Positions 3,708-9,431 of a stretch of 64,000 nt of DNA are shown here, piece after piece. The stretch lies in assembly GCF_024700885.2 (NCBI RefSeq), contig NZ_CP117016.1, one strand, 5' to 3'. Each line of letters begins with the position of its first letter. The first letter of the stretch is position 1. The notes under the pieces are model-generated. The model did not search any database and had not been told where the DNA came from. It saw only the letters and a program-made list of their open reading frames with translations. The stretch comes from Escherichia coli (GTDB lineage: Bacteria > Pseudomonadota > Gammaproteobacteria > Enterobacterales > Enterobacteriaceae). Both the position numbers and the translations under genes were made by a program.

Positions 3708-3929
3708 ATGGCAAAGATCCGATATCTGCAGGGCACGCATGATGCCCGGGCCGGGGATATCCGTGATGTGGCACAGCCGTGTGCGGAGGTGCTGGTTCGC
3801 CTGGGAAAGGCGGAGTACATCACGGTGCGACGTCCGGCAGGTCAGAAAAAGAAACGTGATGCGGAGCATGGCGAATGTGGAACCTTTTACGGCGAACCCG
3901 AAAAAACCAGAAATCAGGACGTGACGTAA
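3708..3929 (+). CDS. Hypothetical small protein (73 aa) between capsid and portal; overlaps the annotated portal start
   Basis: ORF only; follows the cgggaggc-gtgc-gcctcccg hairpin after the capsid gene; no recognisable family; weak RBS. Confidence 0.2.
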   Translation: MAKIRYLQGTHDARAGDIRDVAQPCAEVLVRLGKAEYITVRRPAGQKKKRDAEHGECGTFYGEPEKTRNQDVT

Positions 3930-6460
3930 GAGAGGCGGGCTGGACCAGCCTGTTTCAGGCGGTGGCTGAGCCCTTTTCCGGCGCCTGGCAGCAGGGCGTG
4001 AAAGCCGATCCTGAAGCCGTCCTCTCCTTTCATGCGGTGTTTGCATGTATTTCGCTGATATCCCAGGATATCGCCAAAATGCGGCTGCGTCTTATGCAGA
4101 CGGATGCGCATGGGATACGCAGGGAAACGCGCCGGGGGGATATTGCCCGCCTCTGTCGTCGTCCCAACGCCCAGCAGAACCGCATCCAGTTTTTTGAACT
4201 GTGGCTGAACGCCAAACTGCGTCACGGCAATACGGTGGTGCTGAAAATCCGTAATGCCCGGGGGCAGATCAAAGAACTGCGTATTCTGGACTGGAGCCGG
4301 GTTGAACCTCTGGTGGCGGATGACGGCGAGGTGTTCTACCGCATCACGCCGGACCGGAACTGCGGGATCACGGAGGCGGTGACGGTGCCTGCCCGGGAAG
4401 TGATCCACGACCGGTTTAACTGTTTTTTTCATCCGCTTATAGGATTGCCGCCGGTGTATGCCGCCGGGCTGGCGGCCACGCAGGGGCATCATATTCAGGA
4501 AAATTCGACGTCTTTTTTCAGAAATGGTGGCAGGCCGTCCGGGGTGATTGAGATCCCCGGCAGTATTACGGAAGAAAATGCGAAAAAACTGAAGAGCAAC
4601 TGGGACAGCGGGTATACAGGCGAAAATGCGGGGAAAACGGCCATTCTGAGCAACGGGGCAAAATACAACCCCACGACGTTTTCACCTGTGGATGCGCAGA
4701 CGGTGGAACAACTGAAGATGACCGCTGAAATTGTCTGTTCGGTGTTCCGTGTCCCGGCCTACAAGATTGGCGTGGGACAACCGCCTTCCAGTGACAACGT
4801 GGAGGCGCTGGAGCAGCAGTATTATTCCCAGTGCCTGCAGACGCTGATTGAGTCCATTGAACTGTTACTGGATGAGGCGCTGGAAACGGGGGAAAACGAG
4901 AGTACAGAATTTGATGTCACCACGCTGCTGAGAATGGACAGTGAGCGGCGCATGAAAACGCTGGGGGATGCGGTGAAAAATACGCTTCTCACGCCCAATG
5001 AGGCCCGTAAACGGGAGAACCTGCCGCCCCTGGCCGGCGGTGATGCACTGTATCTTCAGCAGCAGAACTACAGTCTGGAGGCGCTGTCCCGTCGTGATGC
5101 CCGTGAGGATCCGTTCTCGTCTGCCGGGAAAACAGTTTCATCACAGCTGCCTGACGGCGCATCTGACGGTAATAAGGCAATCAGTGAAACAGAGCATGAT
5201 GCGGTGAAAGCGATGTTCAGGGGGGATACTGAGAAAATGACGGAACGGGAACTGTCCATTATTCGTGCACTGGGAGAAGAATTCTCCACAGTGCTGGCGG
5301 ATTTACAGCGCACATTTGAGGGGAAGATGGCCTCGCAGGCACAAGCGTTTGAAGAGAAACTGACTTCCCTGTCGGCGGTATTACAGAAGCATGTGACGGT
5401 GGATGAGGTGCGTCCGGTTCTGCAGGCGATGGTGGATGACGCTGTGGGGGCCATTCCGGTACCGCGTGATGGTCGTGATTATGATCCGGATGTACTGCAG
5501 CAGGCGGTGAATGATGCGGTCGCAAATATTCCGCAGCCGGCGGACGGTAAAAGTCTCACCCCGGATGATGTGCGTCCGATGCTTGAACAGATGGTGAAGG
5601 AGGCTGTAAGCCATATCCCTGTTCCGCGTGATGGTCGTGACTACGATCCGGAAGTACTGCAGAAGGCGGTGAATGATGCGGTCGCAAATATTCCGCAGCC
5701 GGCGGACGGTAAAAGTCTCACCCCGGATGATGTGCGTCCGATGCTTGAACAGATGGTGAAGGAGGCTGTAAGCCATATCCCTGTTCCGCGCGACGGTCGT
5801 GACTATGATCCCGATGTTCTGCAGAAGGCGGTGAATGATGCGGTCGCAAATATTCCGCAGCCGGCAGACGGTAAAAGTCTCACCCCGGATGATGTGCGTC
5901 CGATGCTTGAACAGATGGTGAAGGAGGCGGTAAGCCATATTCATGTTCCGCGTGATGGTCGTGACTACGATCCGGATGTTCTGCAGAAGGCGGTTCTGGA
6001 TGCGGTGAGTGCCCTGCCGGCTCCGCAGGACGGGCGTGATGCCACGGCTCTGGAAATACTCCCCGCCATTGACGATCAAAAATCCTTTCCCCGGGGCACG
6101 TATGCCACACACCAGGGCGGACTCTGGCGGGCGTATGAAAAAACGCACGGGATGCGGGGATGGGAATGCCTGGTTGACGGGGTGGCGGATATTGACGTCA
6201 GCATGACGGGTGAGCGGTTGTTCTCTGTGGTGGTCCGGCAGAGCAGTGGCCAGCGTACGGAAAAAACATTTTCCCTGCCGGTGATGCTCTACCGCGGTGT
6301 GTTCAGAGCCGGTGAAACCTACCACCCCGGCGATACGGTGACGTGGGGGGGCTCGCTGTGGCACTGCAACAGTATGACCGAAGATAAACCCGGAGAAGCT
6401 CATTCATCAGCCTGGACCCTGGCTGCAAAACGTGGGCGGGATGCAGGAGGCGGAAAATGA
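3875..6460 (+). CDS. Portal protein (HK97 family) with about 465-aa C-terminal extension containing tandem repeats
   Basis: Residues about 40-400 align to HK97-type portal motifs (FHAVFACISLISQDIA, RRPNAQQNRIQFFELWLNAKLRHGNTVVL, FFRNGGRPSGVIEIPGSITEENAKKLKSNWDSGYTGENAGKTAILSNGAKYNP, NEARKRENLPPLAGGDALYLQ); the ORF continues uninterrupted for another about 465 codons. Start codon uncertain. Confidence 0.8.
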   Translation: MWNLLRRTRKNQKSGRDVREAGWTSLFQAVAEPFSGAWQQGVKADPEAVLSFHAVFACISLISQDIAKMRLRLMQTDAHGIRRETRRGDIARLCRRPNAQQNRIQFFELWLNAKLRHGNTVVLKIRNARGQIKELRILDWSRVEPLVADDGEVFYRITPDRNCGITEAVTVPAREVIHDRFNCFFHPLIGLPPVYAAGLAATQGHHIQENSTSFFRNGGRPSGVIEIPGSITEENAKKLKSNWDSGYTGENAGKTAILSNGAKYNPTTFSPVDAQTVEQLKMTAEIVCSVFRVPAYKIGVGQPPSSDNVEALEQQYYSQCLQTLIESIELLLDEALETGENESTEFDVTTLLRMDSERRMKTLGDAVKNTLLTPNEARKRENLPPLAGGDALYLQQQNYSLEALSRRDAREDPFSSAGKTVSSQLPDGASDGNKAISETEHDAVKAMFRGDTEKMTERELSIIRALGEEFSTVLADLQRTFEGKMASQAQAFEEKLTSLSAVLQKHVTVDEVRPVLQAMVDDAVGAIPVPRDGRDYDPDVLQQAVNDAVANIPQPADGKSLTPDDVRPMLEQMVKEAVSHIPVPRDGRDYDPEVLQKAVNDAVANIPQPADGKSLTPDDVRPMLEQMVKEAVSHIPVPRDGRDYDPDVLQKAVNDAVANIPQPADGKSLTPDDVRPMLEQMVKEAVSHIHVPRDGRDYDPDVLQKAVLDAVSALPAPQDGRDATALEILPAIDDQKSFPRGTYATHQGGLWRAYEKTHGMRGWECLVDGVADIDVSMTGERLFSVVVRQSSGQRTEKTFSLPVMLYRGVFRAGETYHPGDTVTWGGSLWHCNSMTEDKPGEAHSSAWTLAAKRGRDAGGGK
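5399..6046 (+). repeat. In-frame tandem repeat array, period 162 bp (54 aa), about 4 copies, inside the portal gene 3' extension
   Basis: Unit ccggatgatgtgcgtccgatgcttgaacagatggtgaaggaggc... recurs at 5561, 5723 and 5885 with near-identity; a diverged copy precedes and a partial copy follows. Confidence 0.9.
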
Positions 6461-7586: not shown

Positions 7587-7927
7587 CGGAGGCGGATTTG
7601 TATCCTCATCTGGCGCATCTTGCCGGCGGGCAGGTGTACCCGTATGTGGTCCCCCTGCTGGATGGCAGGCCGTCGGTGGCGCTTCCGTGGGTGGTTTTCA
7701 GCCTGATTTCATCGGTGTCAGCGGACGTGATGGGCGGGCAGGCGGAGTCCTCAGTGTCGGTGCAGATAGACGTTTATGCCGGGACTGTGACGCAGGCGCG
7801 TCAGATACGTCAGGACGCCCGTGAAGCCATAATGCTGCTGGCCCCGGGATCCGTCAGTGAAATGCAGGACTATATTCCGGAAAACCGCTGTTACCGTGCA
7901 ACCCTGGAGTTTCAGGTCACGGTGTGA
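7583..7927 (+). CDS. Tail completion / tail terminator-like protein
   Basis: 114-aa ORF coupled to the upstream gene, immediately before the major tail gene. Confidence 0.5.
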   Translation: MTEADLYPHLAHLAGGQVYPYVVPLLDGRPSVALPWVVFSLISSVSADVMGGQAESSVSVQIDVYAGTVTQARQIRQDAREAIMLLAPGSVSEMQDYIPENRCYRATLEFQVTV

Positions 7928-7953
7928 CTTTTTCTTTTTTCTACAAAACCATA

Positions 7954-7976
7954 CCCCGCCGCGTGCGGGTTTTTTA
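7954..7976 (+). terminator. Hairpin plus T tract upstream of the major tail gene
   Basis: cccgc-cgcgt-gcggg followed by tttttt; caggagg RBS and ATG 7992 follow. Confidence 0.35.
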
Positions 7977-7991
7977 TTATCAGGAGGCAGA

Positions 7992-8708
7992 ATGTCTGCT
8001 TTGTATGAACGCTCACAGCTGACGCAGGTGATGATTTCATCTGCCCCGGCGACTGCTGAAACTATGGATAAGGCGGAATATCTGCGCCTGGATTGCACCA
8101 TCAAGGAAGTCCAGTTCACCGCCGGTCAGAAACAGGATATTGATGTGACCACGCTCTGCTCCACCGAGCAGGAGAACATCAACGGTCTGGGGGCGTCGTC
8201 TGAGATTTCCATGTCGGGTAATTTTTATCTGAATCAGGCCCAGAACGCCCTGCGTGATGCCTATGACAATGACGCGTTGTATGCGTTTAAGGTGCTGTTT
8301 CCGTCCGGTAAGGGCTTTAAGTTCCTGGCGGAAGTGCGTCAGCACACCTGGTCATCCGGTACCAACGGCGTGGTGGCAGCAACGTTTTCACTGCGTATGA
8401 AAGGCAAACCGGTGTCCTTTGTGGTACCGCTGGCGTTTGTGAAAAATCTGGATAAAACACTTACCGTGAATACAGGTGCGCTGCTGACAATGTCAGTCAG
8501 TGCCAACGGGGGAACGCCGCCGTATAAATACGCCTGGAAGAAGGATGGTCAGCCGGTTGACGGGCAGACGACAGACACCTTCAGTAAGCCAGGTGCGCAG
8601 TCCGCTGATGCGGGGAAATATACCTGCGTGGTGACCGATTCGGCAGAGAAAGCACAGAGTGTGACGTCTGTTGAATGCACCGTGACAGTGAGCGCAGCCG
8701 CCGGATAA
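7992..8708 (+). CDS. Major tail protein (lambda gpV-like) with C-terminal Ig-like domain
   Basis: ATG 7992 preceded by aggagg; C-terminal about 80 aa look like a bacterial Ig-like domain (TVNTGALLTMSVSANGGTPPYKYAWKKDGQPV...GKYTCVVTD), as in lambda gpV. Confidence 0.8.
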   Translation: MSALYERSQLTQVMISSAPATAETMDKAEYLRLDCTIKEVQFTAGQKQDIDVTTLCSTEQENINGLGASSEISMSGNFYLNQAQNALRDAYDNDALYAFKVLFPSGKGFKFLAEVRQHTWSSGTNGVVAATFSLRMKGKPVSFVVPLAFVKNLDKTLTVNTGALLTMSVSANGGTPPYKYAWKKDGQPVDGQTTDTFSKPGAQSADAGKYTCVVTDSAEKAQSVTSVECTVTVSAAAG

Positions 8709-8722
8709 GGGGATGGGTCATC

Positions 8723-9097
8723 ATGAAAAAGGATCTGAAAACGCTGGCGCTGGCCAGACTGTCAGGGTTTCGTCATAAAACGGTGAAGGTGCCGGAATGG
8801 GGTAATGTCAGCGTGGTGCTGCGGGAGCCTTCGGCAGAGGCCTGGTATCTGTGGCAGGAAGTGCTCAATGGTGATGGAGAGGATGACGATACCCTGTCGG
8901 TGGTGGCGAAAACCCGCCGTAACCTGGAAGCGGATGTGACGCTGTTCTGCGATGTCCTGTGTGATACGGATCTGCAGCGGGTGTTCGCTCCGGACGACCG
9001 TGAGCAGGTGCTGGCCGTCTATGGTCCGGTACATGCCCGGTTGCTGCGTCAGGCACTGGAACTGATCGCTGATGCAGAGTCGGCCAGAAAAAAGTAG
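8723..9097 (+). CDS. Tail assembly chaperone (lambda gpG-like)
   Basis: 124-aa acidic ORF immediately before the tape-measure gene; ends at TAG 9095-9097 just after the slippery heptamer. Confidence 0.8.
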   Translation: MKKDLKTLALARLSGFRHKTVKVPEWGNVSVVLREPSAEAWYLWQEVLNGDGEDDDTLSVVAKTRRNLEADVTLFCDVLCDTDLQRVFAPDDREQVLAVYGPVHARLLRQALELIADAESARKK

Positions 9098-9402
9098 CCC
9101 GCCCGGAAATTCGCTTTCTGATGCGACTTGCGCTCCGTCTGGGGCGCACCTTATCCGAACTGCGGCACAGCCTGAGTGTGAGCGAGGCGATGATGTGGAT
9201 GGAGTTCGACAGGGTATCCCCGCTGGGTGATGAGCGCGGGGATATCCGTAATGCACAGATCGTGAAAGCGGTTTTTGGGGCACAGGGGATGAATGTTGCA
9301 CTGAAGGACGCCATGCTCTGCTGGGGCGAGGATGAGGATAAGCCGGAGGTGGATCCGTTTGCGGCGCTGGAAGACGCGCTGAGCTTTGCAGCACAGTCAT
9401 GA
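8723..9402 (+). CDS. Tail assembly chaperone G-T fusion (made by -1 frameshift at 9088-9094)
   Basis: G-frame ORF plus contiguous -1 frame ORF; conserved G/GT arrangement upstream of tape-measure genes in long-tailed phages. Confidence 0.7.
9088..9094 (+). promoter_or_regulatory. Programmed -1 ribosomal frameshift site (A AAA AAG) generating the G-T fusion
   Basis: Heptamer A_AAA_AAG in the G zero frame 1 nt before the G stop; the -1 frame is open from 9094 to the TGA at 9400-9402 (ORF-track ORF 9121..9402). Confidence 0.75.
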
Positions 9403-9410
9403 ATGATGAG

Positions 9411-9431
9411 AACCGCTGAGGCGGTTTTTTT
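9411..9431 (+). terminator. Hairpin plus T tract between GT and the tape-measure gene
   Basis: aaccgc-tgag-gcggtt followed by ttttttt. Confidence 0.35.

Follow-up and report, generated by a model that had tools for sequence, protein, structure and literature searches.

A G/GT tail assembly chaperone pair with an A_AAA_AAG slip site in an HK97-tail-type lambdoid prophage of Escherichia coli

Results

Gene content of the locus

The window analysed here is a 64,000-nt stretch of the Escherichia coli contig NZ_CP117016.1, and all positions given below refer to it. Positions 8723–9402 are the G/GT tail assembly chaperone pair of an HK97-tail-type lambdoid E. coli prophage (Table 1). The product of the first ORF, G, matches the Phage_TAC_1 family (PF06222) over its full length (E 1.7e-61, 206 bits against a gathering cut-off of 25) as well as phrog_344 of the PHROG collection, and SD pairing at its start amounts to -8.4 kcal/mol. 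The T segment matches Phage_tail_T (PF06223; E 1.5e-18, 67.4 bits against a gathering cut-off of 25.9). The major tail gene product upstream matches Phage_TTP_11 / Phage_tail_2 together with Ig_3 / I-set in Pfam and the major tail protein phrog_158 in PHROG (E 7.8e-117), and the overall order of genes is major tail, G, T, HK97-type tape measure, and lambda-like M and L. A preliminary description made from the letters of the sequence had named a tail assembly chaperone followed by a T domain, and both identities are borne out by the two Pfam matches and by the location of the pair between the major tail and tape measure genes.

Table 1. Features of the G/GT locus and its immediate neighbours, in window coordinates
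Feature	Position	Strand	Basis or remark
Major tail subunit gene, C-terminal Ig-like domain	7992..8708	+	RefSeq annotation of identical E2348/69 prophage; 5' neighbour of G
G, tail assembly chaperone ORF, 124 aa, zero frame	8723..9097	+	ATG 8723 to TAG 9095-9097
TGA in -1 frame, 5' bound of shift window	9070..9072	+	-1 frame translation
Slippery heptamer A_AAA_AAG, X_XXY_YYZ phase of zero frame	9088..9094	+	Last G codons GCC AGA AAA AAG TAG
T segment, -1 frame, 102 codons plus TGA 9400-9402	9094..9402	+	
Zero-frame stop TAG, abuts heptamer; candidate contributor to slippage	9095..9097	+	
ATG, annotated start of stand-alone 93-aa 'tail assembly protein T'	9121..9123	+	Public annotation
Small 5-bp GC hairpin (GCGCU...GGCGC) over invariant LALRLGR codons	9130..9147	+	RNAalifold
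Terminator-like hairpin plus U run, -10.8 kcal/mol	9408..9431	+	In 47-nt gap between T stop and tape measure start
Tail tape measure protein gene, 3' neighbour	9450..12692	+	PF06120 Phage_HK97_TLTM E 1.2e-90, TMP_3, Tape_meas_lam_C

The predicted G-T fusion is 226 aa long and consists of G residues 1–124 followed by T, with the junction reading ...ESARKK then VARPEIRFLM.... Within the 224-position profile phrog_14766, G matches positions 2–122 and T matches positions 125–224. That a single profile spans both G and T indicates that contiguous G-T proteins exist among annotated phages.

Two terminator-like hairpins closely precede the major tail gene, at 7914–7969; in HK97, too, a putative terminator stands before the major tail gene, at the equivalent place. 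Elsewhere in the window, the 861-aa ORF at 3875–6460, annotated as a portal protein, carries about four tandem repeats of roughly 55 residues (IPVPRDGRDYDP...QPADGKSLTPDDVRPMLEQMVKEAVSH) in its C-terminal half, which is unusual for a portal protein and was seen in translation only. The window starts exactly at the ATG of a 553-aa ORF (1–1662), whose 1662 nt equal the length of the Sakai Sp9 terminase large subunit gene ECs_1792, and in several E. coli assemblies the query match falls at the very coordinates it has in the window. Given the ORF at position 1 and these same-coordinate matches, the chromosome record was apparently opened within the prophage, with the window as its first stretch.

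The slip site and the overlap between G and T

The preliminary description placed the end of G just after an A_AAA_AAG heptamer and reported the -1 frame open for 102 further codons; reading of the sequence and its ORFs confirmed both, with the open -1 frame extending from 9094 to 9399. Upstream, the -1 frame opens no earlier than 9073, so that its overlap with G is confined to 25 nt, within which A_AAA_AAG is the sole in-phase X_XXY_YYZ heptamer. The window contains 29 copies of AAAAAAG, counted in any phase and on both strands, where dinucleotide shuffles predict 14.5 +/- 4.3. Sharma et al. (2014, PMC4066793) report a strong avoidance of in-phase A_AAA_AAG among E. coli genes (z = -10.1). 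By our own arithmetic, the chance of a correctly phased heptamer inside the 8-codon overlap is roughly 8 x 4^-7, or about 5e-4, although a chance origin is made irrelevant by the recurrence of the heptamer at the homologous junction of diverged relatives.

Published record of the site

The frameshift site is already known, being present in two published catalogues with a measured efficiency and belonging to a textbook class. In the catalogue of Sharma et al. (2014), ECs1801, described as 'tail assembly chaperone', is the type gene of the prophage cluster A_AAA_AAG_25, which comprises 53 genes (Table S4, PMC4066793). The cluster is marked [true], with -1 PRF 'safely inferred', and is equated with GeneTack programmed-frameshift cluster #10 (PMC4066793). 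G of the window is 98% identical to ECs1801 of Sakai Sp9 (121/124), and the Sakai Sp9 junction agrees with the window in every base of the slip site and of 75 nt around it.

In the second catalogue (Antonov et al. 2013, PMC3711429), the Phage_TAC cluster 862991913 brings together 41 genes that resemble an HK97 protein. Two Phage_TAC genes were tested in an E. coli GST-MBP reporter and gave 6% and 7% frameshifting (PMC3711429). The 6% cassette carries G_GGA_AAG (PMC3711429), the same slip site as mEp390, and the A_AAA_AAG cassette gave 7% +/- 0.79 of -1 frameshifting, a value that belongs to the reporter and not to the native phage (PMC3711429 Suppl. Table S2). This second cassette is an exact match to positions 9068–9142 of the window. 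A reporter frameshift assay, proposed as a check in the preliminary description, is therefore already published on the identical cassette, with a 7% -1 shift (PMC3711429). A literature search on the HK97-type tail assembly chaperone frameshift in Stx phages returned no paper.

Conservation of the two-frame layout and of the junction

The predicted 226-aa fusion was used as a tblastn query against phage records. In 198 of them, at 36–99% identity, the matches to G and to T were separate and lay in different frames; these include the plaque-forming phages HK97, HK633, mEp390 and KS9. HK97 gp14 and KS9 gp12 are annotated as two-piece joins, and the HK97 record states a -1 frameshift. Junctions were then extracted from ten diverged phages, and all carried an A_AAG-ending slip site except that of KS9, which is A_AAA_AAA; the forms encountered in the ten are A_AAA_AAG, A_AAA_AAA, G_GGA_AAG and G_GAA_AAG. 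In the window, Sakai Sp9, Evi (66% identity) and Pm34 (48%), A_AAA_AAG is followed directly by TAG with 0 nt to the G stop. The same heptamer is found 3 nt from the G stop in Moraxella Mcat13 and 30 nt from it in Burkholderia PhiBP82.1 and Bordetella PHB09, while the A_AAA_AAA of Burkholderia KS9 is 33 nt from the stop. In mEp390 a lambda-type G_GGA_AAG lies 3 nt before the G stop. HK97, HK633 and ENT39118 have CGG_GAA_AAG, of which only A_AAG is in phase, at 15 nt (HK97, HK633) or 3 nt (ENT39118) from the stop.

A further 80 loci were found in IMG/VR through the T alignment; two clades dominate this set, and the deeper diversity comes from the tblastn search of phage records. Among the 80, the junction is AAAAAAG followed by TAG in 65, AAAAAAA followed by TAG in one and GGAAAAG in 14. 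The A_AAA_AAG heptamer is invariant in all 48 close IMG/VR relatives, and TAG stands directly 3' of the heptamer in 66/66 A-run members, which belong to the window and Evi lineages, as well as in Pm34. In the Evi clade a TAA lies just before the heptamer and the -1 frame opens only 6 nt ahead of T, which leaves the heptamer as the sole possible shift site there.

Among the IMG/VR loci, an Evi-like clade (L065, L069, L070 and others) has an A8 run (ttaaAAAAAAG tag, junction at about 1195–1201), locus L076 has an A9 run with A_AAA_AAA, and in locus L091 one A fewer leaves G and T fused in frame, as is also the case for the database protein P0004. The longer A runs of the Evi-like clade could permit transcriptional slippage or replication indels. 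The HK97-type junction CGG_GAA_AAG (L015 1335–1341, HK97; L006, HK633; L008, ENT39118) contains no in-phase canonical X_XXY_YYZ, despite the -1 frameshift annotated there in the HK97 record, and this form is also found in 14/80 IMG/VR relatives.

Stimulatory elements and nearby hairpins

No stimulatory fold was found 3' of the heptamer, as MFE z-scores were -0.4 for 9095–9200 and -0.8 for 9060–9160, and 35% of shuffles gave equal or better hairpins starting 3–10 nt past the heptamer. RNAalifold applied to 14 diverged relatives returned no conserved structure near the slip site. The absence of an obvious stimulatory hairpin, as first described, is thus a point on which the fold z-scores, the shuffles and the 14-relative alignment agree. 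A dnaX-like SD, which would lie about 10 nt upstream, was likewise not found, the anti-SD duplex being -3.0 kcal/mol as compared with -7.4 kcal/mol for what we take to be the dnaX sequence. The small hairpin at 9130–9147 was considered as a stimulator and rejected: it is located about 35 nt 3' of the heptamer and coincides with the LALRxGR codons, its consensus energy is -4.3 kcal/mol with an unfavourable covariation term of +0.37, and it is broken in the Burkholderia and Moraxella members. For the published cluster A_AAA_AAG_25, no SD is reported and the predicted structure is no stabler than background (delta-delta-G 0.020 +/- 0.023/nt; Sharma et al. 2014 Table S8, PMC4066793).

The terminator-like hairpin that the preliminary description placed near 9411–9431 is present, at about 9408–9429 plus the U run, and the element is absent from the list produced by a consensus terminator scan. 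At the equivalent position in HK97, the moron gp15 is flanked by putative terminators, and the window may keep a terminator without the moron.

Comparison with known systems

The closest known system is ECs1801/ECs1802 of Sakai Sp9, which has the same gene order as the window; nothing of substance separates the two, only a handful of substitutions in the N-terminal part of G and in the hairpin that lies between T and the tape measure gene. HK97 gp13/gp14 belong to the same families (PF06222 and PF06223, with gp13 scoring 203 bits on PF06222), are about 60% identical and occupy the same place before an HK97-type tape measure gene. They differ in the junction, where only A_AAG of CGG_GAA_AAG is in phase and the G stop lies 15 nt further on, and in the interval from T to the tape measure gene, which in HK97 carries the moron gp15 and in the window is only the 47-nt gap with its terminator-like hairpin. 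The HK97 gp13/gp14 family of tail chaperone frameshifts was reportedly covered by Xu, Hendrix and Duda in 2004. By sequence the locus is a member of the HK97 gp13/gp14 group, and it works like lambda G/GT.

The locus resembles lambda G/GT in its genomic position, in slipping by -1 with low efficiency close to where G ends, and in a T that belongs to PF06223; the assembly role is presumably the same. However, lambda G belongs to PF06894 instead of PF06222, and no pairwise BLAST similarity was detected between the window and lambda in either G or T. The lambda slip site, read directly from the lambda sequence, is G_GGA_AAG and lies 15 nt before the G stop, which settles the earlier statement that the heptamer of the window is of the dnaX type and unlike that of lambda. 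The lambda G/GT system is said to be the subject of Levin, Hendrix and Casjens 1993 and of Xu, Hendrix and Duda 2004, 2013 and 2014.

The window and dnaX have the heptamer A_AAA_AAG in common, decoded in both cases by the same single tRNA-Lys. In dnaX, an SD-like stimulator is located upstream, a strong hairpin follows about 5–6 nt downstream, and the shift reaches about 50% (PMC3711429). Unlike dnaX, the slip site of the window has no SD-like stimulator and no hairpin beyond shuffles, and the shift is about 7% in the reporter. The outcome also differs, as the dnaX shift truncates the protein whereas the shift in the window extends it by 102 residues. Of the three defining parts of the dnaX signal, the locus has only the heptamer; tests for the other two gave a negative result.

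Distribution and annotation

Prophages of many E. coli genomes, E2348/69 and NCTC86 among them, match the DNA of the locus at 100% identity, and long-tailed Stx-converting phages, for example 2851 and YYZ-2008, match it at about 99%. Of 5426 complete E. coli genomes, 1245 (about 23%) contain the module, with up to seven copies in one genome, and its carriers include Stx-converting and effector-carrying prophages of O157:H7. In the identical loci of NC_011601.1, ON470597.1 and NC_049943.1 (L001–L003), T is given as a stand-alone 93-aa ORF with no ribosomal-slippage join. The 226-aa GT protein is missing from RefSeq/PGAP and from most GenBank phage records, and NCBIfam holds no model for G, T or GT.

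Discussion

Anatomy, homology and conservation of the locus were observed directly in this work, and the frameshift itself is established from the literature. The reading of the locus as a G-T programmed frameshift, put forward in the preliminary description, is accordingly supported by homology, by the conserved two-frame layout and by the published reporter value. We consider tandem tRNA-Lys -1 slippage on A_AAA_AAG, yielding the 226-aa GT at a few percent of G, to be the correct account with a probability of about 0.93. Most ribosomes would translate the 124-aa G and terminate at the TAG at 9095, while a minority would slip by -1 on the heptamer with tRNA-Lys on AAA in the P site and on AAG in the A site. 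The pair of tRNAs would re-pair on AAA AAA, GUA would be read next, and translation would continue in the -1 frame to the end of GT. These tandem P- and A-site steps are modelled on dnaX work, and the assembly role on that of lambda. Slippage by tRNA-Lys on AAG was described by Tsuchihashi and Brown (1992), as cited in PMC4066793. In lambda, the partner of G is the tape measure protein and that of T the major tail protein, and the virion contains neither G nor T (summarised in PMC5009743). By analogy, abundant G together with the G part of the rarer GT would coat the tape measure protein, the T part would recruit the major tail subunit, and a fixed low G:GT ratio would be set by the frequency of slipping, about 7% in the reporter.

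Public annotation offers a different account of T. RefSeq and GenBank give a separate CDS from ATG 9121, which is where the preliminary description had noted it and lies 24 nt past the G stop, a spacing at which reinitiation is physically conceivable; T would then be made mainly as an independent 93-aa protein through initiation or reinitiation at this codon, and the heptamer would be incidental. SD pairing before ATG 9121 is -3.5 kcal/mol, which is at background level (the median for the ATG triplets of the whole window is -3.0), as compared with -6.2 to -12.8 kcal/mol at ten start positions nearby. The methionine is kept in most enterobacterial relatives, yet it is replaced by Thr in KS9 and by Phe in Mcat13, whereas T residues P4, F8 and L9, which are encoded 5' of the ATG, are nearly invariant in the T alignment. 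The background SD, the unconserved Met and the conserved residues upstream of it together indicate that T is entered by frameshifting and not by initiation of its own, and ATG 9121 is probably just the internal Met10 of the T segment. Furthermore, the identical cassette frameshifts at 7% in the reporter, and Phage_TAC is outside the clusters that Antonov et al. list with additional internal initiation (PMC3711429). In addition, a free T would lack the link through G to the tape measure on which the lambda mechanism turns (Xu, Hendrix and Duda 2013/2014, cited in PMC5009743). An independent start at 9121 is, on this comparative evidence, contradicted, and we regard it as very unlikely. Smaller still is the likelihood that the locus is a single gene decayed by a frameshift mutation in a cryptic prophage, with no programmed event. 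The locus is indeed a prophage, and rare versions fused in frame are found in databases (P0001, P0004, P0118; L091), but the split layout is the rule across 198 phage records, 79/80 IMG/VR loci and 1245 E. coli genomes. The fused proteins P0001, P0002, P0004 and P0118 were considered as a possible ancestral state and rejected, as each is a single case, with indels at or close to the A run. Pseudogene decay is thus effectively refuted by the comparative data.

Transcriptional slippage is harder to separate from tRNA-Lys slippage at the level of the product. Were the polymerase to add one A to the A6 run, the identical in-frame ...RKKVARPE... fusion would result, and reporter assays cannot separate the two routes. 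The longer runs in relatives (A8 in the Evi clade, A9 in L076) make polymerase slippage plausible there, slippage-prone homopolymers being typically at least 8 nt long (Antonov et al., PMC3711429). However, the run in the window is only A6. The junctions of mEp390 (G_GGA_AAG) and of HK97 and ENT39118 (G_GAA_AAG) have runs of only A3–A4, unable to support polymerase slippage, and nevertheless keep A_AAG; the G_GGA_AAG cassette shifts at 6%, about equal to the 7% of the A_AAA_AAG cassette. The G at heptamer position 7 is kept in 65/66 A-run loci, and its conservation fits a ribosomal mechanism of tRNA-Lys on AAG and not a requirement for a homopolymer. Polymerase slippage at the A6 run of the window is therefore considered improbable, to much the same degree as an independent start of T, and ribosomal slippage on A_AAA_AAG is retained as the favoured account.

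The efficiency of this ribosomal slippage differs between reporters. The bare heptamer A_AAA_AAG gave only 0.29% in a lacZ system (Sharma et al. 2014, PMC4066793), as against 7% for the cassette in GST-MBP, and G_GGA_AAG shows the same gap, with 0.28% in the lacZ system of Sharma and 6% in the GST-MBP system of Antonov. The gap of 0.29% versus 7% may reflect the difference in reporter. A cryptic stimulator could also lie behind the slippage of about 7%, and the zero-frame UAG abutting the heptamer is the best candidate for it: once translocation has brought the UAG into the A site, its slow decoding would leave the tRNA-Lys pair long enough to slip. We hold this to be doubtful, since the evidence is weakened by the small number of independent lineages and by the double duty of these bases, which also code for the conserved Val-Ala of T. 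A literature search returned nothing relevant on stop-codon stimulation of -1 slippage. The idea of stop-codon-assisted slippage reportedly goes back to Horsfield et al. 1995. If the UAG does contribute, these prophages would use a stop-codon-assisted route and not a dnaX-type barrier route.

As a discovery the locus matters little, the G/GT frameshift being textbook phage biology. Its practical value lies in annotation, as a very common E. coli prophage module still stands in public records without its GT fusion.
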